From: a virus
Lineage: Duplodnaviria; Caudoviricetes
Length of the DNA stretch: 64,000 bases
Direction: 5' to 3' (one strand)
Virus record (IMG/VR): IMGVR_UViG_3300028048_000055
Location: 32,001 to 96,000 of that record
This document shows, one piece after another, positions 10,681 through 50,260 of this stretch (the first letter of the stretch is position 1; each line of letters begins with the position of its first letter). A program made the translations under genes and the position numbers. The notes beneath the pieces were generated by a model. It worked only from the letters and a program-made list of their open reading frames with translations, ran no database searches and had not been told where the DNA came from.

Positions 10681-10994
10681 TGTTCCATAGCTCAGTTGGT
10701 AGAGCGACGGACTGTTTGAAATAGACACTTATATTGGAAACGATATATGAAAATCATCGCTAAGTCGGTGAAACCTGTAAAATGGCAACGCCGAGCAAGG
10801 ATTAGAAATAATCTATGTGTAGAGACTTTATACGATGAGCCTAAGTCAGTAATGATATGGCTAAGACAAAGTCCAGACTACAAACGAGTGTCCAATTTGC
10901 GCGGTGGGGGGCTTAACACCCATGCGGATGCTTGGTAACGAAAGTTATAGTAGTATGAATCCGTTGGTCCCTGGTTCGAGTCCAGGTGGAACAG
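10681..10994 (+). tRNA. tRNA-Asn(GTT), interrupted by a group I intron
   Basis: exons 10681-10716 and 10958-10994 rebuild the cloverleaf (ACGGA-CTGTTAA-TCCGT; TGTTCCA/TGGAACA). Confidence 0.9.
10717..10957 (+). mobile_element. group I intron (no ORF) in the tRNA-Asn anticodon loop
   Basis: P/Q/R/S-like core (TCGGTGAAAC, GGCAACGCCGAGCAAG, GTAGAGACT, AAGACAAAGTCC); U before the 5' splice site and terminal G. Confidence 0.85.
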
Positions 10995-11135
10995 CTAACA
11001 CTTAGACAGTAATTGTTCATTGTTACAACGTTATTGTTACGCACGATGAAATTCATGCAAGTTTGGAATCGACAATATTTTGTTAATTCTGGGTAAAGTT
11101 TCAATGAATAGCGGGTGATTATTATCTAAGTAGAT

Positions 11136-12541: not shown

Positions 12542-12660
12542 TATAGCATAGGTAGTTCCTATTACTAAGCGTATAGCTCAACTGGTGGAGCAGTTACCGA
12601 AAGGTAAAAGGTTGTCGGTTCGAATCCGATTGTGCTTGCCATTCGATACTACCCGCTATA
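12542..12660 (+). ncRNA. UCCUAU scaffold copy 2 carrying an anticodon-less tRNA mimic (GAAA loop, CCA end)
   Basis: TATAGC-ATA-GGTAGT-TCCTAT...TAC-TACC-C-GCTATA enclosing tRNA-like 12567-12641. Confidence 0.8.
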
Positions 12661-12796: not shown

Positions 12797-12862
12797 ATGA
12801 CTTACGTTATGAACACAAATAATACCAACCCTAATAATAACCCTGAGGTTCTACAGGATTAG
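12797..12862 (+). CDS. attenuator leader peptide 2 (MTYVMNTNNTNPNNNPEVLQD)
   Basis: 7 Asn, 3 Thr, 2 Pro; precedes a terminator and Asn/Pro/Thr tRNAs. Confidence 0.85.
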   Translation: MTYVMNTNNTNPNNNPEVLQD

Positions 12863-12936: not shown

Positions 12937-13021
12937 TCTAGTGTACCCGAGTTGGTAGCAGGGGGAGGACTGTTAATCCTTTGGCGAAAGCCCGTCGCAC
13001 GTCCGAGTCGTGCCACTAGAG
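12937..13021 (+). tRNA. tRNA-Asn(GTT) with long variable arm
   Basis: TCTAGTG/CACTAGA acceptor, loop CTGTTAA, GGC-GAAA-GCC extra arm. Confidence 0.8.
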
Positions 13022-13030
13022 CTAAATTAT

Positions 13031-13114
13031 TGGTAGGTACCCGAGTGGTAGCAGGGGGCGGCCTGTTAAGCCGTTGGCGAAAGCCCGTCGTTGGTTCGAA
13101 TCCAACGTGGACAG
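13031..13114 (+). tRNA. tRNA-Asn(GTT), poorly paired acceptor stem (possible pseudo-tRNA)
   Basis: D, anticodon and T arms intact; TGGTAGG/GTGGACA mismatched. Confidence 0.6.
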
Positions 13115-13123
13115 CTAAAATAT

Positions 13124-13203
13124 TGTCTTGTGGCGGAATTGGTAAACGCACTGCACTGTTAATGCAGCACTTCGGTTTGTAGGTTCGATGCCTACCAAGA
13201 CAG
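13124..13203 (+). tRNA. tRNA-Asn(GTT)
   Basis: TGTCTTG/CAAGACA acceptor, loop CTGTTAA. Confidence 0.8.
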
Positions 13204-13213
13204 TTAGATAAAA

Positions 13214-14914: not shown

Positions 14915-14981
14915 TATCAATGAGAAAGGGTTGACATTTGTCGACCTTTTTTCTATATTAAAAGAAAAAGGAAATATAATA

Positions 14982-17032: not shown

Positions 17033-17140
17033 ATGAACAAGAACTTTAACATTGAATTCATCGCGATTGCAGCAGAACGTATTGCAGAATTTGCAGAACG
17101 TGTTTTTGCGATTGACAATTCAGTGCACAGGTTCAAGTAA
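17033..17140 (+). CDS. attenuator leader peptide 3 (MNKNFNIEFIAIAAERIAEFAERVFAIDNSVHRFK)
   Basis: 6 Ala, 5 Ile, 5 Phe, 4 Glu; precedes Glu/Ala/Phe/Val/Ile tRNAs. Confidence 0.85.
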   Translation: MNKNFNIEFIAIAAERIAEFAERVFAIDNSVHRFK

Positions 17141-17215: not shown

Positions 17216-17289
17216 GGGACTTTAGAATACGTTAGCTAGTTCACCGCCCTTTCACGGCGGAGAATCGGGGGCAGCACCCGGAAGTCCTA
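17216..17289 (+). tRNA. tRNA-Glu(TTC)
   Basis: loop CTTTCAC; atypical T loop (GGCAGCA). Confidence 0.75.
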
Positions 17290-17297
17290 CTAATTTT

Positions 17298-18352: not shown

Positions 18353-18388
18353 AAAAGGATTGACATTAGTCAATCCTTTTTCTATATT
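18353..18388 (+). terminator. fused terminator and promoter
   Basis: AAAAGGATTGAC/GTCAATCCTTTT hairpin contains TTGACA; TATATT 17 nt later. Confidence 0.7.
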
Positions 18389-19951: not shown

Positions 19952-20071
19952 AATAGCAAAAGCGGTTCCTATAACCAGAGGAATAGCTTAGTTGGTTAGA
20001 GCAACGCAGCAATGCGGAGGCCGTCGGTTCGAGTCCGATTTCCCCTACCATCAAGTTTACTGCTCGCTATT
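19952..20071 (+). ncRNA. UCCUAU scaffold copy 7 carrying an anticodon-less tRNA mimic (GCAA loop, ACCA end)
   Basis: AATAGC-AAA-AGCGGT-TCCTAT...TAC-TGCT-C-GCTATT enclosing tRNA-like 19977-20050. Confidence 0.8.
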
Positions 20072-20121: not shown

Positions 20122-20223
20122 ATGACAAAGTTTGTAGTTGATATGCATGATGTTGATACTCGCCGCGATGGACGAGGTTTCGGCAAGCATGATAAGGATC
20201 GCTACAGACACAGGGTCATTTGA
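20122..20223 (+). CDS. attenuator leader peptide 4 (MTKFVVDMHDVDTRRDGRGFGKHDKDRYRHRVI)
   Basis: 6 Asp, 6 Arg, 3 Gly, 3 His, 3 Lys; precedes Asp/Arg/Gly/Lys/His tRNAs. Confidence 0.85.
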   Translation: MTKFVVDMHDVDTRRDGRGFGKHDKDRYRHRVI

Positions 20224-21887: not shown

Positions 21888-22607
21888 ATGAATTACTTAG
21901 AATTAAATGATAAAGGTAAGCTCGGAAGTGATGAGCAAAAATTGGCCGACTATTTTGGAGTCGGTCATTATACTACATTTTATAAAAAGCATTTTTTACA
22001 AAATAAAATAAAACTCACTAAGGATGATTTTATTGCAGGCGTAATTCCAGTAATGTTTTGCGCTATGAAAAAACTTAACATTGATTATAAGCATGATGAT
22101 TATCCTGAACAGCTACAAAAATATCTTCATCGTAGAATTTGGGAATCGACTCTTGGTCGTATAAAAACTAGTGTCTTTAATGATTATCTATTTGGACCTG
22201 TTTTTATTAAACCAAAAGATAAATTAAAAAAGTTTACTGGTTTTGTTTTAAATTCAAGAGATGATTGGCTTCTTACTGAAGGCGCAGGCGATAGCACGAA
22301 AATTATCTGTTCAAAACCGGTAAAATGGGTTACAGAATATCGTATTCCTGTAATTAATGGCGTCGCAAGAGATTATTGTCATTATTTTGGAAATCCAGGT
22401 ATATTTGTAGATAAGGCTGTAATTCAAAATATGATAGGTGATTGGAAAGATTCTCCAAAAGCATATTGCTTGGATGTTGGAGTCTTAGATACTGGAGAAA
22501 CTGCATTAATAGAAGTTAATGATGCATTTAGCTGCGGTAGTTACTCAATGAGTGCTGAAACCTATGGTGATTTACTGACAACAAGATGGAATGAGTTAAA
22601 AGGTTGA
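21888..22607 (+). CDS. ATP-grasp domain protein (DUF4343/R2K-like)
   Basis: VFIKP...KKFTG, EYR, LDVG...LIEVND motifs. Confidence 0.8.
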   Translation: MNYLELNDKGKLGSDEQKLADYFGVGHYTTFYKKHFLQNKIKLTKDDFIAGVIPVMFCAMKKLNIDYKHDDYPEQLQKYLHRRIWESTLGRIKTSVFNDYLFGPVFIKPKDKLKKFTGFVLNSRDDWLLTEGAGDSTKIICSKPVKWVTEYRIPVINGVARDYCHYFGNPGIFVDKAVIQNMIGDWKDSPKAYCLDVGVLDTGETALIEVNDAFSCGSYSMSAETYGDLLTTRWNELKG

Positions 22608-22638
22608 CGAAAGTCAACCTTTTTTCTATATTTAAATT

Positions 22639-22953: not shown

Positions 22954-23017
22954 TAGGATAAAGGTTGACGAAAGTCAATCTTTTTTCTATATTATAATAT
23001 GGAATAAAGGATTAATA

Positions 23018-26267: not shown

Positions 26268-26489
26268 ATGACTAACTTTGAAATGTGAAAGGAATCGCTC
26301 ACTGCAGAAGAGTGGGCAAATAAATTTGTAGAACTGGATTATTGTCCAAAATGTCCAGCCTATAGTTTTTGTAGAGATTGTGATATATTGAATCCAACAA
26401 AGTTAGATGGAACAGTCAATACAGAAGAATGTAATAATACTTGTAGAAAGAGATTTCTTACTTGGGCAAATAAAGATGCACAATGTTAA
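26268..26489 (+). pseudogene. small Cys-rich gene with an in-frame TGA at codon 7
   Basis: MTNFEM*KESLTAEEW...CPKCP...C reads through to TAA 26487. Confidence 0.5.
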
Positions 26490-26799
26490 ACATGCATATG
26501 TATATTGTAATGATAAGCTTGCGGGTCATTTGTTAAGAAACCGCAAGCATTATGTTTTTATATACGATAAAGATTATGTTGGTCCATCTATTGCCATAAA
26601 TTTTCCTAAATCAACTAGATACTATTCTAGTCCGTATTTATTTCCGTATTTTTATGGATTGTTGCCAGAAGGTGAAAATAAAGAATTCTATTGCAAAATA
26701 TTTCACCTTAATCCAGATGATAATTTTGAAATCCTGACAAATTTAGCATGGCATGAAACAATTGGTCCTGTTACTGTAAGACCTTTCAAAAACGGTTGA
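26476..26799 (+). CDS. stand-alone HipA N-terminal domain protein (HipS-like)
   Basis: AYVY...AGHL...YVFIYD...LFPYFYGLLPEG...IGPVTV. Confidence 0.8.
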   Translation: MHNVKHAYVYCNDKLAGHLLRNRKHYVFIYDKDYVGPSIAINFPKSTRYYSSPYLFPYFYGLLPEGENKEFYCKIFHLNPDDNFEILTNLAWHETIGPVTVRPFKNG

Positions 26800-26845
26800 C
26801 AAAACATTAATAGTTTTCTATATTAAAATAAAAAAGAGAACCTTA

Positions 26846-27250
26846 ATGTATACATGTAATCCAGATAGAGTTTTTCGTGGACCACGTGAAGCACAAGAAC
26901 ATGATATGGTAGTTGACTTTACTCATGAAGTTGCTAAAAAACTTGAAAAACTTAAATTACCTACATTTGGTAATAATGAAAAATTATTTTCATATATCGA
27001 ACGTGAAAACAGAGATAAGTTATATTTGTCATTTAAATGTGATTATAGAAAAGAATCCATTTTCGTAGAAATTCCTTCAGTTGATTTTGGTATATCTTTA
27101 CACGTAAAAGATTTAAAAAAGATTAAAACTAAACTTAAACCTGATGGTTATCTTATAAAAGCTATTAATGAAGGTGAAGATTTAATAAGGCAAATTCGTA
27201 GTACAATAAAGTCGAAAATTCATACAGCAATTACATTGGATGAAGTATAA
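26846..27250 (+). CDS. hypothetical protein, tandem paralog 1
   Basis: RVFRGPREA...KKLEK...DGYLIKAI. Confidence 0.7.
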   Translation: MYTCNPDRVFRGPREAQEHDMVVDFTHEVAKKLEKLKLPTFGNNEKLFSYIERENRDKLYLSFKCDYRKESIFVEIPSVDFGISLHVKDLKKIKTKLKPDGYLIKAINEGEDLIRQIRSTIKSKIHTAITLDEV

Positions 27251-27702
27251 TGCATGAAATTATAGATGATAGACAATGGCGTGGACCGACTGATGCTGTA
27301 ACATTTAAGAGAACTTGTGAAAATAATCATAGTTTAGCACAAAAACTTGAAAAACAAGGTATTAAGACTAGTGGTATAAATGATGAACTTTATGCTTGTT
27401 TAAAAATTAATAAGCATCCATTATTAATACAACCTAGTTGGCGTTATATTGATTGTTGGGGTTCGCATCCTAGTGGTAAAGATCCATATGATGTTAATAT
27501 TATGATTCCTGCGGTAGGAGTAACAATTCCTGTTAAACTTGCTAAAATTAAAAAGACATTTGAATCTAAAACTTATCTTGTAAAAGCATTGACCGAATAT
27601 AGTGCGGCATTAGCTGCTGCAAAAAGTAAAAAAGCAAAAAAATCTGTAGACTTGGCATATACAAGTATAATTGAATCAGCTCAAGCATTTGATGAGGCAT
27701 AA
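27250..27702 (+). CDS. hypothetical protein, tandem paralog 2
   Basis: RQWRGPTDA...KLEKQGI...DPYDVNI. Confidence 0.75.
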   Translation: MHEIIDDRQWRGPTDAVTFKRTCENNHSLAQKLEKQGIKTSGINDELYACLKINKHPLLIQPSWRYIDCWGSHPSGKDPYDVNIMIPAVGVTIPVKLAKIKKTFESKTYLVKALTEYSAALAAAKSKKAKKSVDLAYTSIIESAQAFDEA

Positions 27703-27704
27703 TT

Positions 27705-28130
27705 ATGCATATAATTGAAAGAGATAGTACATGGCGTGGTCCAAGCGAAGCTGTGGCATTCAATAGAGAGTGTAATGATAAGCATGATCTTGCTGTAAAA
27801 CTTGAAAAACAAGGTATTATAACTGAAGGTGTAAATACTACACTTTATGGTTATATTAACTTAGGAGAAAGATTTTTACGAATAATTCCTTCTTGGCGTT
27901 ATGATGGCTATTGGAGAACTAAAGATGGTAAATCAGATCCATATGATGTCAATATTGAAATTCCATCATTTGATGTAACTATTCCGGCTAAGCTTGATAA
28001 TATTAAGAAAGTATTTAGTTCTGACGGATATCTTATGAAAGCTATTAAAGAATATGAAGCATCTTTGCATACTGCAAAGCTTGTATTCGCAAATACTATT
28101 AAAGCAGCACAAGCATTGGATGAAGTATAA
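27705..28130 (+). CDS. hypothetical protein, tandem paralog 3
   Basis: STWRGPSEA...KLEKQGI...DPYDVNI. Confidence 0.75.
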   Translation: MHIIERDSTWRGPSEAVAFNRECNDKHDLAVKLEKQGIITEGVNTTLYGYINLGERFLRIIPSWRYDGYWRTKDGKSDPYDVNIEIPSFDVTIPAKLDNIKKVFSSDGYLMKAIKEYEASLHTAKLVFANTIKAAQALDEV

Positions 28131-28262: not shown

Positions 28263-28291
28263 TTTACAAACAGAAAATAAATTACTATATT
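28263..28291 (+). promoter_or_regulatory. promoter of tRNA block 6
   Basis: TTTACA-N17-TATATT; near-identical to 25286. Confidence 0.75.
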
Positions 28292-28357
28292 TAACAACGT
28301 AAAATAACGAAAAACAAGAAAAAACTTTTATATATAATAATAAAGGATAAAAGCAAA

Positions 28358-28447
28358 ATGAACTATCAGTTATATACATCATGCACTTCTTCATGCAGAC
28401 AGCAGTCTTCATGTTATTGCATGTATTCCATTAAAACTGATGGGTGA
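28358..28447 (+). CDS. attenuator leader peptide 6 (MNYQLYTSCTSSCRQQSSCYCMYSIKTDG)
   Basis: 6 Ser (all TCN), 4 Tyr, 4 Cys, 3 Gln (all CAG); precedes Tyr/Cys/Met/Ser/Gln tRNAs. Confidence 0.85.
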   Translation: MNYQLYTSCTSSCRQQSSCYCMYSIKTDG

Positions 28448-28477
28448 CATCATTAAAGTTTGTATATAAACTTTTAT

Positions 28478-28508
28478 GGCGTCACGAAAAGTGACGCTTT
28501 TATTTTTT
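28478..28508 (+). terminator. attenuator terminator 6
   Basis: GGCGTCAC/GTGACGCT plus T tract; GTGACATCAT over the stop codon competes. Confidence 0.85.
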
Positions 28509-28516
28509 ATTAATTT

Positions 28517-28601
28517 GGCAGTTTCGGATAGCGGCAATTCCTGGAGGCTGTAACCCTCCCGCCTTAACGGGCTTCCGTAGGTTCGAGTCCTACAGCTGTC
28601 A
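28517..28601 (+). tRNA. tRNA-Tyr(GTA)
   Basis: GGAGG-CTGTAAC-CCTCC. Confidence 0.85.
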
Positions 28602-28621
28602 CTAAAAATTTATGAATTTAT

Positions 28622-28708
28622 GCTAGTTTGGCAGAGTGGCGAATGCGCGTGACTGTAGATCACGTCTCTAACGAGTTAACATCAGGGGTTCGACTCCCTT
28701 AGCTAGCA
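28622..28708 (+). tRNA. tRNA-Tyr(GTA)
   Basis: CGTGA-CTGTAGA-TCACG. Confidence 0.85.
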
Positions 28709-28725
28709 CTAAAATATAGGTAAAA

Positions 28726-29262
28726 ATGTCAATAAGTTTAATTGAAAAATATGGAGAAGATTATATACGTAATGTTTTTAAAACTGCCAAAACAGTTGAT
28801 GAAGCATGTGAAAAATTACAAACAATAACAAAATATTTAAATTATTATGCAAAAGAATTAAATTGTATTGATGATTATAATAGAATAAAAATTAATTCTA
28901 GTCAAATTGTTAAAGAACGTTTAAAAGATTATCCAGATGCATACATAATGAAAAATGTTAATGGTGTAGTTACACGTACTATAAATGATGATGCATGGCT
29001 TAAATTAATTTTTGAAAATAAAATTAGTAGTAAAAAACAAACAATATTACGTATTCTTATTAAAGCAGGATATAAAGAAAATAAATGTGAATGTTGCGGT
29101 ATTAATGAATGGAATAAAAAACCAATAACTTTACAATTACATCACAAAAATGGAAATCCACGTGATAATTGTTTAGAAAATTTAGAAATATTATGTCCAA
29201 ATTGTCATTCACAAACTAATAATTATGGAAGTAAAAATGCGGCATTACATATAAAAGATTAA
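28726..29262 (+). CDS. HNH endonuclease
   Basis: CECCG...LQLHHKNGNPRDN...LCPNCHSQT. Confidence 0.85.
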   Translation: MSISLIEKYGEDYIRNVFKTAKTVDEACEKLQTITKYLNYYAKELNCIDDYNRIKINSSQIVKERLKDYPDAYIMKNVNGVVTRTINDDAWLKLIFENKISSKKQTILRILIKAGYKENKCECCGINEWNKKPITLQLHHKNGNPRDNCLENLEILCPNCHSQTNNYGSKNAALHIKD

Positions 29263-29529
29263 AACACAAACGAGTAGAACCCGTGTTGCATCATTCTTGA
29301 TTTCATGCTAACGGGCTAACCCAGATGGGGAAAACTCTGGGACGAGGAATCTGCTCTTGCGAATTAGATGAATAACAGAATGATGGTCGCAAGAGTGTAG
29401 TATTGGCTCTACTAAAATATGCCACGTGAGGCCACTTGAAATAAGAGTGAGCGGAGAGAAATTCTGGATTAACCACCTGCTGTGCTCCTTAATCAGTCCT
29501 TGCAATTAGGACGCCTGTAAGTTTGTGTT
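29263..29529 (+). ncRNA. unidentified ~265-nt structured RNA
   Basis: AACACAAAC/GTTTGTGTT closing stem, several helices and a crossing pairing. Confidence 0.6.
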
Positions 29530-29535
29530 AATTGT

Positions 29536-29608
29536 GCTGATATAGCCAAGTCTGGTAAGGCTGATGGTTGCAACCCATCGATCGGGAGTTCGAATCTCTC
29601 TATCAGCT
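29536..29608 (+). tRNA. tRNA-Cys(GCA)
   Basis: GATGG-TTGCAAC-CCATC; U73. Confidence 0.87.
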
Positions 29609-29613
29609 CTACA

Positions 29614-29708
29614 TGTAGCATAGGATGTTCCTATTAATGGAAGATAGGCCATCAGGCCTTGATTCGGTTCAAATCCGAAAGCCGAAAGGCAAATTACATC
29701 CCGCTATA
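29614..29708 (+). ncRNA. UCCUAU scaffold copy 9 (T-arm mimic plus two hairpins)
   Basis: TGTAGC-ATA-GGATGT-TCCTAT...TAC-ATCC-C-GCTATA; TTCGG-TTCAAAT-CCGAA. Confidence 0.8.
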
Positions 29709-29719
29709 AGAAATTAAAA

Positions 29720-29792
29720 AATGGCATAAGAAGTTCCTATTTCGCCCGTTAGGGCATCCGACTTGAAATCAGACTAATTACTTCTCGCTATT
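29720..29792 (+). ncRNA. UCCUAU scaffold copy 10 (mini D-arm + TGA/Ser anticodon arm)
   Basis: TGGC-ATA-AGAAGT-TCCTAT...TAC-TTCT-C-GCTA; TCCGA-CTTGAAA-TCAGA. Confidence 0.8.
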
Positions 29793-29796
29793 TAAC

Positions 29797-29868
29797 GGCA
29801 GTATAACACAATGGTTAGTGTAGCGGAATCATAATCCGTTAATATTGGTTCGAATCCAGTTATTGCTA
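29797..29868 (+). tRNA. tRNA-Met(CAT) (elongator, or Ile2)
   Basis: GCGGA-ATCATAA-TCCGT. Confidence 0.8.
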
Positions 29869-29884
29869 TAATAAAAAATTAATT

Positions 29885-30718
29885 ATGAAGTTAAAATACA
29901 TATGTCAATATTGTAATAAAGAATTAACTAGGCCATGTGCATTAGCTATACATCAACGTGTTTGTAAATTAAATCCAAATAGACAACCGTTAATAAATAA
30001 TGGTAATTTAAATATAGCTAAATATCATAAACCTAAGGCTCCATATGGAACATGGAAATGTAAGTGGTGTAATAATGACATTATTTTTGATACTAGAAAA
30101 CAATTAAAAGAACATTTAAAAGAAAAACATCCAGAAAAACGTAATGCATGGAATAAAGGCTTAACAAAAGAAACTGATGAACGTGTTAAACAATTTGGTC
30201 AAACATATTCTAAGCGAATAAAAAATAAAGAAATATCTGCACTTTTTGCAGGCAAAAAACATACAGATGAATGGCGAAAAAATCATTCAGAATTACAAAA
30301 AGAAAGATATAAAGGAATATCGATATATGCAACCGTAAGGGAAAAACGAAAATCTTATCCTGAACAATATTTTGATAAAATATTTAGTGATGCAGAAAAA
30401 CAATATCATGTAGATAGTTATTTTTTAGATTATGCATGGCCATATATTAAATTATATATTGAAGTTGATGGTGAACAACATTATACTGAATCTGGTTTAC
30501 TTCATGATAAAGAAAGAGCAGAAATATTAAGTAAATTAGGTTGGAATTGTATTACGCGTATTAGATGGAAAAATTATATAAAATTAACAACTAATGAAAA
30601 AGAAAATTTTATAAATAATTTATTAAATAAAATTAATATTTTTAAAAATGAAACTATAGGAAGCAAAACAGACTGCCGGCTCCTATATACGGTGTACAAC
30701 GTCGAAGATAAGGTCTAG
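29885..30718 (+). CDS. Zn-finger + DUF559/Vsr-like putative homing endonuclease
   Basis: paralog of 11522: KSYPEQYF...LDYAW...IEVDGEQHY. Confidence 0.8.
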   Translation: MKLKYICQYCNKELTRPCALAIHQRVCKLNPNRQPLINNGNLNIAKYHKPKAPYGTWKCKWCNNDIIFDTRKQLKEHLKEKHPEKRNAWNKGLTKETDERVKQFGQTYSKRIKNKEISALFAGKKHTDEWRKNHSELQKERYKGISIYATVREKRKSYPEQYFDKIFSDAEKQYHVDSYFLDYAWPYIKLYIEVDGEQHYTESGLLHDKERAEILSKLGWNCITRIRWKNYIKLTTNEKENFINNLLNKINIFKNETIGSKTDCRLLYTVYNVEDKV

Positions 30719-30784
30719 GGTTTGTAAGTTTCAGTATTGGAGAAACTTATACGGCAAGGTTCACCGGGAACAATGAACCATTTT

Positions 30785-30870
30785 TGAGGATTAACCCTAA
30801 TTGGTAAGGGCACGGTTTGGAATACCGTCGTGGGTTTACTCACTTGAAAGTTCGAGTCTTTCATCCTCAG
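30785..30870 (+). tRNA. tRNA-Ser(GGA)
   Basis: ACGGT-TTGGAAT-ACCGT. Confidence 0.82.
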
Positions 30871-30972
30871 CTACGTATGGTGTTAGCGTTAAAACGGCAT
30901 AGGTATACATATGCACGGCACTGCACAGATGAACTATGCGTATTACTGTGCAAAATAAAAAATACGCTGTCT

Positions 30973-31056
30973 GGAAGAGCATCAGATTGGCGACTCAAGC
31001 TGTCCTGAAAACAGTAGTTCCGCAAGGGCTTGTGGGTTCAAATCCCTCCTCTTCCT
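30973..31056 (+). tRNA. tRNA-Ser(TGA) with C33
   Basis: GCTGT-CCTGAAA-ACAGT. Confidence 0.75.
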
Positions 31057-31061
31057 CTAAT

Positions 31062-31142
31062 GGAAGATTAGACTAACTGGTAAGTCAGCAATTTCGAACG
31101 TTGCCGCCGAAAGGCTTGGGTGTTCGAGTCACTCATCTTCCG
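31062..31142 (+). tRNA. tRNA-Ser(CGA)
   Basis: GCAAT-TTCGAAC-GTTGC. Confidence 0.82.
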
Positions 31143-31152
31143 TTATATTTTC

Positions 31153-31228
31153 TGTCCGTTAGCCAAGTCTGTTCTAAGGCAGGGGTCTCTGAAGCCTCCA
31201 TTCGGTGGTTAAAATCCATCACGGACAA
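31153..31228 (+). tRNA. tRNA-Gln(CTG)
   Basis: U1-A72; GGGGT-CTCTGAA-GCCTC. Confidence 0.82.
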
Positions 31229-31246
31229 TATTTTCAAATCTTTTTT

Positions 31247-31277
31247 ATAACGGTCATCATTGACCGTTATTTTTTTA
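31247..31277 (+). terminator. terminator ending tRNA block 6
   Basis: ATAACGGTCA/TGACCGTTAT plus T tract. Confidence 0.8.
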
Positions 31278-31313
31278 TATTTGTTTTTATAAAAACAAAA
31301 ATAGGAAACAAAT

Positions 31314-49909: not shown

Positions 49910-50260
49910 TTGAAGTCTATTTCCTCGGAGCGAAGACCAACTCAATGGAATTGTCGGTAGAGGGATAGCCGTTTCGCATGGAAATAGTCATGCGGGTTAA
50001 AAACTATGCAGTTTTTAATAACGAATCGGCAAATTGTCAAATTGACATGTCACGGTTAACGAAAATCTATTATCGAAGTATAATTATAGCAGAATTATAC
50101 ACTTAGCCGCCCTTGGTAGTATTAGGATGTAGCTGGAATACAGGAGGACCGATCCATAAGCCTAATATATAAATCCCGATGGTCGAAGACGATAGTCGTC
50201 TTCTAGCCTATCTTCCTGGATAGGCTCAAAGTCTCTGACGATAATTTTGACGTATGAGTA
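49910..50260 (+). ncRNA. unidentified ~350-nt structured non-coding region
   Basis: no long ORF, GC above background, many short inverted repeats. Confidence 0.45.

Follow-up and report, generated by a model that had tools for sequence, protein, structure and literature searches.

A short module in the genome of an uncultured phage (~420 kb) is, in our reading, a ribosome-mediated (leader-peptide) transcription attenuator that controls the phage tRNA block behind it; from the sequence evidence we put the probability of this reading at about 0.8. The module lies in a 64,000-nt stretch, here called the window, which corresponds to bases 32001-96000 of a 165-kb IMG/VR virus record (32% G+C, 40% complete according to CheckV). 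A first-pass annotation had proposed an attenuator at this site and the proposal is supported: the parts are statistically significant, the leader codons change with the tRNA content of the block in related phages, and the alternative helices covary. The comparative support for this predicted switch is unusually strong.

We suggest the following mechanism. A transcript from one of two promoters, P1 or P2, would carry a leader of 29 codons, mostly Tyr, Cys, Ser-TCN, Gln-CAG and Met. A ribosome that reaches the TGA stop would cover the antiterminator 5' strand (28444-28453), so that the terminator (28478-28498) could form and transcription would stop 9 nt before tRNA-Tyr. When a charged cognate tRNA is scarce, the ribosome would stall on the leader, leaving the 5' strand free to pair with the 5' arm of the terminator. 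With the antiterminator formed, the polymerase would read into a 2.7-kb block that comprises eight tRNAs, spacers and a pair of inserted endonuclease genes. The block's products would speed up the decoding of the leader, giving a negative feedback on decoding capacity. This circuit would be multivalent, because a shortage of any one tRNA of the set would open the whole block. The features of the module and its block are collected in Table 1.

Table 1. Features of the Tyr-block module and of the tRNA block behind it (positions in the window).
Feature	Position	Strand	Remarks
P1, sigma-70-like promoter	28263-28291	+	TTTACA, 17 nt, TATATT
P2 box (putative promoter), 24 nt	28322-28345	+	runs into the SD; one-to-few-mismatch variant of an enriched promoter-like motif
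Leader ORF	28358-28447	+	ATG to TGA, 29 codons
Small hairpin in last leader codons	28428-28443	+	kept in all lineages with different sequence
Antiterminator hairpin	28444-28485	+	minimum-energy fold
Intrinsic terminator and T tract	28478-28508	+	stem 28478-28498, 8 bp, 5 G-C, loop 5 (terminator scan)
tRNA-Tyr(GTA)	28517-28602	+	
tRNA-Tyr(GTA)	28622-28709	+	
HNH-type homing endonuclease ORF, 178 aa	28726-29262	+	weak HNH_3 match
Transcribed spacer, G+C-richer	29263-29535	+	weakly structured, z -2.2
tRNA-Cys(GCA)	29536-29609	+	
Spacer, clearly structured	29610-29796	+	z -4.6; two copies of GTTCCTAT-type tRNA-like scaffold
tRNA with CAT anticodon	29797-29868	+	
Endonuclease ORF, 277 aa	29885-30718	+	DUF559/Vsr-like nuclease and zinc fingers
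tRNA-Ser(GGA)	30785-30871	+	
tRNA-Ser(TGA)	30973-31057	+	Rfam 29.1 bits; ARAGORN at lowered threshold only
tRNA-Ser(CGA)	31061-31143	+	
tRNA-Gln(CTG)	31153-31228	+	
Block-closing terminator	31247-31280	+	strong; 31247-31270 in the terminator scan

The leader and the tRNA block behind it

The leader ORF, which is probably translated, has a Shine-Dalgarno sequence (SD) AAGGA at 28343-28347, 11 nt upstream. Its codons agree with the composition given in the first-pass annotation: TAT four times, TGC or TGT four times, six Ser codons (TCA, TCT or TCC), CAG three times and one internal ATG. The annotation had also matched this leader to the tRNAs of the block, i.e., two Tyr, Cys, Met, three Ser and Gln(CTG), and the match is highly significant, as 18 of the 28 codons after the start can be read by the block's own tRNAs under wobble rules. 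In the phage's long ORFs, 14% of the codons are of this kind (binomial P 1.7e-9). The corresponding P values of the other modules in the window are similar.

The match goes down to the anticodon. Serine is encoded only by TCN in the Tyr-block leader, and the serine tRNAs of the block are GGA, TGA and CGA; in the Leu/Trp leader (25377) all Ser codons are AGY, in keeping with Ser(GCT) in its block. Gln is CAG every time in the Tyr-block leader, ahead of Gln(CTG). Lys is AAG every time in the leader at 20122, ahead of Lys(CTT), while Ala is GCA or GCG every time in the leader at 17033, ahead of Ala(TGC). About one third of the Tyr-block leader codons are non-cognate, most of them within the structure-forming tail of the RNA. 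The cognate codons stop 17 nt upstream of the antiterminator 5' strand, and the last five codons together with the stop form RNA structure. Indels between lineages inside this ORF are multiples of three and keep the frame.

These codon choices bear on what the leader would sense. Classical attenuators sense tRNA charging, and a ribosome stalls in the same way on a missing and on an uncharged tRNA. With unchanged parts and the same architecture, the sensed variable could thus be amino-acid supply instead of tRNA abundance; the phage would then read host starvation for Tyr, Cys, Ser, Gln or Met and shift its tRNA output within a wider starvation response. However, extra tRNA does not relieve amino-acid starvation, and the leader codons follow the anticodon and not just the amino acid (AGY vs TCN, CAG vs CAA, AAG vs AAA). 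They also move with individual tRNA genes, see below, which fits a sensor of the encoded tRNAs. We therefore consider amino-acid supply an improbable input, and prefer tRNA abundance.

The terminator unit ends 9 nt ahead of the first tRNA-Tyr (28517). The extent first assigned to the controlled unit, about 2.7 kb up to a terminator at 31247, agrees with the list of tRNAs and with the terminator found at the end of the block (31247-31270). Two endonuclease genes had been placed in the unit, and both are recognizable: one ORF is of the HNH_3 type, by a weak match, and the other carries DUF559 and zinc-finger domains. At the position of the HNH ORF (28726-29262) there is no ORF-sized gap in the related genomes G006 or G001, and the second ORF (29885-30718) occupies the site of two tRNA-Ile(GAT) genes in G001 and G006. 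The several non-coding RNAs ascribed to the unit are only partly borne out. The spacer at 29610-29796 is structured and the one at 29263-29535 weakly so, but two other spacers are unstructured. The tRNA with the CAT anticodon is taken as elongator Met, an Ile2 identity being possible. Some tRNA identities come from low-threshold calls or were assigned by eye; Ser(TGA) here and the Ile-like genes of G006 are of this kind.

All tRNA genes detected in the record lie on the + strand between 10.7 and 31.2 kb of the window. ARAGORN finds 38 of them at default settings and several further ones were found by Rfam or at lowered thresholds; homing-endonuclease ORFs break up the array. Directly upstream of the Tyr-block module, window positions 26407-28130 are taken up by an ORF with a HipA N-terminal domain (26407-26799), followed by three tandem paralogous ORFs of 134-150 aa without Pfam match.

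RNA structures and promoters of the module

Terminator-like sites are frequent in the region, 19 in the scan vs 5.5 expected. The first-pass annotation described the antiterminator as one long hairpin (28444-28485) that starts on the TGA and sequesters the terminator 5' arm. This hairpin is indeed the minimum-energy fold. Its 5' strand begins one base ahead of the TGA and overlaps the stop codon, and its 3' strand is the 5' arm of the terminator. The nascent RNA up to this arm has a folding energy of -20.0 vs -9.7 +/- 2.6 in shuffled sequences, 0.3% of which reach -20.0, and for the whole 151-nt unit z = -5.3 against shuffles. In fold predictions, masking the first 13 nt past the stop, which mimics a terminating ribosome, makes the terminator form in place of the antiterminator. 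Tested as a simple duplex, the 8-nt terminator arm and the stop-codon window show no significant pairing for the Tyr-block module (P 0.064), because the antiterminator is a longer composite hairpin. The small hairpin in the last leader codons (28428-28443) may be a pause hairpin.

In the trp attenuator a protector or pause helix (1:2) would occupy the antiterminator 5' strand. None was found upstream in the folds of the leader; the only helices there (28428-28443, and 28363-28371 with 28435-28443) adjoin the antiterminator strand without competing for it. Without a protector helix, an untranslated leader is predicted to read through by default. That no segment guards against antiterminator formation, and that the leader stop lies only 31 nt ahead of the terminator stem, would also suit the opposite logic, in which efficient translation of the leader promotes read-through, e.g., by coupling of ribosome and polymerase through the terminator, so that the block would be switched on only when its codons are decoded well, in a feed-forward loop. 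However, the strand needed for antitermination sits under the stop-codon ribosome in six modules and in five lineages, and the cognate codons end at least 17 nt upstream of it. A stalled ribosome would leave the strand free and a ribosome on the stop codon would cover it, so that the geometry matches read-through induced by stalling. A positive loop would, moreover, need no block-wise codon matching. We regard such a reversed switch as very improbable, and retain stalling as the probable trigger of read-through.

A search of 10000-32000 with the Rfam leader families (His, Leu, Thr and Trp) and the T-box gave no match at the gathering score or at E up to 1; over 28447-28539 there were only sub-threshold chance matches.

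P1 and P2 both lie upstream of the leader. A conserved promoter box occurs five times in the genome, and P1 is one of these copies. The parent motif of the P2 box has 15 matches in the window vs 1.75 expected, and it precedes ordinary genes, 9-21 nt from their start codons. We read the 24-nt box as a second, phage-type promoter. The box is found directly upstream of the SD in five units (five matches, none expected), while a sixth unit, at 12797, is without a promoter of its own.

The first-pass annotation took internal promoters that drive the tRNAs independently of the leader as evidence against the attenuator. In this genome, neither phage promoter motif has a copy inside 28517-31247, and generic sigma-70 matches in this interval do not exceed those of shuffled sequences in quality, so that the objection does not apply here. 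TATAAATA alone is not enriched, and a copy of it at 30610, inside the second endonuclease gene, was rejected as a promoter since the longer promoter motif is not matched. A different arrangement is seen in the G002 lineage (contigs L033 and L043-L049): the region upstream of the leader has no P1-type promoter, but one is found after the Tyr-block terminator, ahead of tRNA-Tyr. As this promoter is downstream of the attenuator, the tRNA block there can be made without passing it. The Tyr-block leader of G002 still tracks the content of the block despite the bypassing promoter.

A further type of element recurs in the window. At 18353-18388, 22598-22632 and 22960-22993, as well as at 14931 and 16504, there are hairpins with TTGAC in the stem, followed by a T run and TATATT. 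By their sequence they look like a terminator and a sigma-70-type promoter combined in one element. Such hairpins close tRNA blocks in relatives too.

Modules and lineages compared

The window contains six leader-attenuator modules with equal layout, and in all six the antiterminator 5' strand is placed at or just ahead of the leader stop codon. Among all 720 permutations of these six leaders and blocks, the assignment of each leader to its own block gives the most cognate codons, although the first two modules have similar tRNA sets and swapping them scores almost as well. The own-block assignment is also the best in G001 (5040 permutations) and in G002 and G006 (720 each).

Searches by megablast and blastn against GenBank phages gave no close relative, the matches being tRNA and HNH fragments only. 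Relatives are present in IMG/VR and in metagenomes, many of them as fragments. G001 (424 kb) and G002 (416 kb) are complete and have terminal repeats, and G006 is a 411-kb record. We compared the Tyr-block module in five lineages, represented by G000 (this window), G001, G006, G002 and L009, see Table 2.

Table 2. tRNA content of the Tyr block and codons of its leader in five lineages.
Lineage	tRNAs of the block	Leader codons
G000	Tyr x2, Cys, Met, Ser x3, Gln(CTG)	4 Cys, 3 CAG, 1 Met, 1 Ile
G001 type	as G000 plus two Ile(GAT)	3 Cys, 3 CAG, 4 Ile
G006 type	Cys and two Ile-like genes, no Gln(CTG)	3 Cys, 4 Ile, 1 Gln
G002 type	Tyr, two Met, Ser(AGA), Ser(TGA) only	0 Cys, 0 CAG, 3 Met
L009 type	Tyr, two Met, Ser(AGA), Ser(TGA) only	1 Cys (structural tail), 0 Gln, 3 Met

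Leader and block vary together. Tyr blocks with tRNA-Cys have leaders with 3-4 Cys codons, those without it 0-1. Where the block has two tRNA-Met, the leader has three internal ATG codons vs one, and where it has two tRNA-Ile(GAT) (G001, G006), there are four Ile codons vs 0-1.

Codons also appear where a tRNA gene has gone. In G002, Gln(CTG) and Cys are located in the Trp/Leu block, whose leader has Gln and Cys codons, two of each. L009 has Cys alone of these genes in the Trp/Leu block, and the leader there has two Cys codons and no Gln. In lineages with neither Cys nor Gln(CTG) in this block, the Trp/Leu leader has no Cys or Gln codons. In G006 and L067, Gln(CTG) is found in the Arg/Lys block, whose leader has two CAG beside its CAA codons. 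The Ala/Glu leader has one Ile codon in G001 and G006, which carry Ile(GAT) in the Tyr block; G000 and G002 carry it in the Ala/Glu block, and their Ala/Glu leaders have 4-5 Ile codons. Cys, Gln(CTG) and Ile(GAT) were relocated in separate events, and each of these moves agrees with the attenuation model. Over 27 modules, almost every tRNA species shows a difference in cognate codon counts between modules that have the tRNA and modules that do not (Mann-Whitney), e.g., 2-4 Cys codons with tRNA-Cys vs 0-1 without; the modules come from related lineages, so the P values are descriptive and not independent tests.

The two alternative helices can be followed in the same way. An antiterminator over the stop codon is predicted in 5/5 lineages, and in each the terminator forms once the 5' strand is masked. 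The helix strands were compared from the folds of each lineage, as a MAFFT alignment had the helices of three sequence types out of register. A five-base core common to both helices reads GUCAC in G000, G001 and G006 but GUCGC in the other two lineages (G002, L009). Opposite this core, GUGAC is replaced by GCGGC or GCGAC in the antiterminator and by GCGAC or GCGGC in the terminator. Thus, one substitution in the middle strand has its counterpart on either alternative partner, which is what two helices that are both in use would show.

It could still be held that no regulation takes place here, i.e., that the ORF is a small protein gene or is not translated, that the terminator is a plain leaky terminator of an upstream operon, and that the codon match has no regulatory meaning. 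Translation and termination are indeed predicted from sequence here. However, this explanation is strongly disfavoured, and we give it almost no weight, given a P value of 1.7e-9 with similar values in the other modules, an own-block assignment that is the best of all permutations in four genomes, codons that migrate together with tRNA genes, and covariation of all three helix strands.

Codon 9 of the leader is an in-frame TAA in the G006 lineage (L039:4197-4292, also L040 and L041), where the siblings L065 and L078 have TCA. On sequence this is a natural point nonsense variant of the sensor, present in three contigs, and it indicates that the sensor can be lost or bypassed; under the proposed mechanism the variant would be constitutively open. 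A reading of this TAA by a suppressor tRNA was rejected, as the 'Stop(tta)' call comes from the intron mode of ARAGORN only and the siblings have TCA. By eye, the gene behind the call is a Lys(TTT)-type tRNA with an insert in the D-loop.

Every relative has a conserved element of ~80 nt between the Tyr-block terminator and the first tRNA-Tyr (L031:12925-13010, L039:4350-4434, L033, L009), with a core CCCTTGAG...TGTATAGGA followed by a GGTGAAAG hairpin. It is absent from this window, where the tRNA comes directly after the terminator.

A seventh module, placed in a second tRNA cluster, is seen in relatives (G001 L032, G002 L035, G006 L051, L067), outside this incomplete record. Codons AGA, AAA, CAA and ATA make up its leader, which stands ahead of Arg(TCT), Lys(TTT), Gln(TTG), Met and Ile(TAT).

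Several unusual tRNA-like RNAs were found among the modules of the window. Right after the Ala/Glu module terminator lies a tRNA-shaped RNA (17216-17293) with a Glu (TTC) anticodon loop and a non-canonical T loop, which both Rfam and ARAGORN miss. Two tRNA-shaped genes with an encoded 3' CCA (12567-12641 and 19977-20050) have no usable anticodon; in place of the anticodon loop a GNRA tetraloop (GAAA, GCAA) closes an over-paired stem. The one at 19977-20050 is driven directly by a leaderless P1 promoter. A tRNA with a GTT (Asn) anticodon (10681-10995) has its anticodon loop interrupted by an insert of ~240 nt, for which Rfam gives no group I intron match. Three further tRNAs with the Asn anticodon GTT (12937-13022, 13038-13106 and 13123-13204) are 80-86 nt long, as if they had a long variable arm, which is unusual for tRNA-Asn.

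Relation to known systems and possible role

Multivalent leader attenuators are well known from enterobacteria: ilvGMEDA senses Leu, Val and Ile, thrL senses Thr and Ile, and trpL, hisL, leuL and pheL belong to the same group. Like these amino-acid operon attenuators, the phage element has a short SD-led ORF that abounds in regulatory codons. An intrinsic terminator stands directly ahead of the regulated genes, and an antiterminator that excludes it is built on the terminator 5' arm; the position of the ribosome would decide between the two, and several amino acids are read by one leader. As predicted from its sequence, the element has four of the structural hallmarks of leader-peptide attenuators. 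It differs from the trp design in having no protector helix of the 1:2 type, with read-through as the predicted default without translation. It also differs from the amino-acid operon attenuators in controlling tRNAs and not biosynthetic enzymes, so that the product itself decodes the sensor, and in matching by anticodon and codon and not by amino acid alone. Finally, it is viral, and its six to seven paralogous copies jointly cover the code.

The pheM leader of the pheST (phenylalanyl-tRNA synthetase) operon is an example of leader-peptide attenuation of a component of the translation machinery. It resembles the phage element in acting on this machinery and not on biosynthesis. However, pheM controls a synthetase and senses one amino acid, while the phage leader would control tRNA genes and sense five. 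As a further precedent with a Phe leader, E. coli pheU/pheV was considered and dropped, no such ORF being found upstream. T-box riboswitches also use antitermination to report the state of a specific tRNA through codon-anticodon reading, but they bind the uncharged tRNA directly, without a ribosome, and control synthetase and amino-acid genes. The phage element, which has no T-box match, would need a translated ORF. Full-text literature searches, covering phages and cells, found no paper on leader-peptide control of tRNA genes.

With the tRNA-rich region of T5 and with Serratia phage BF the present phage shares many clustered tRNA genes and interruptions by homing endonucleases. Phage BF, which gives the best tRNA-Tyr match, was rejected as a block-bearing relative: according to its annotation, the only source used, the tRNAs are scattered among annotated protein genes. 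In T5, tRNA-Tyr expressed from a strong promoter rescues against retron-Eco7, which targets tRNA-Tyr (PMC11555353). This strong promoter sets the T5 gene apart from the phage block described here, which is fronted by a probable attenuator. The link to defence nucleases suggested in the first-pass annotation is plausible in the light of these findings on tRNA-Tyr.

Current views on the tRNA sets of large phages include codon compensation and evasion of tRNA-targeting defences (PMC10264068, PMC11555353). It can be speculated, tentatively, that each leader serves as a codon-resolved sensor which detects when the tRNA pool is attacked: a host anticodon nuclease or host shut-off would deplete certain tRNAs, e.g., tRNA-Tyr, ribosomes would stall on the leader that matches, and the phage would replace exactly that set. 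If this is true, one ORF and two hairpins would provide both a self-tuning counter-defence and a tRNA homeostat, and selection would keep the sensor in register with its cargo at each move of a tRNA gene between blocks.

The attenuator model bears on two questions, how phage tRNA genes are regulated and why large phages carry near-complete tRNA sets. If the leader measures decoding speed on just those codons that its cargo reads, such phages would dose their tRNA supply on demand, in a closed loop and with the resolution of single isoacceptors. Classical attenuation would then apply to RNA products as well. Besides being compact and portable, the element is easy to re-programme as a sensor of tRNA availability. 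The cases in which tRNA genes moved and the codons followed are natural experiments, which give direct predictions for reporter tests.

Elsewhere in the window, at 50072-50181, there is an Rfam match to the cow-rumen-2 RNA (88 bits), which suggests that the phage comes from the rumen.
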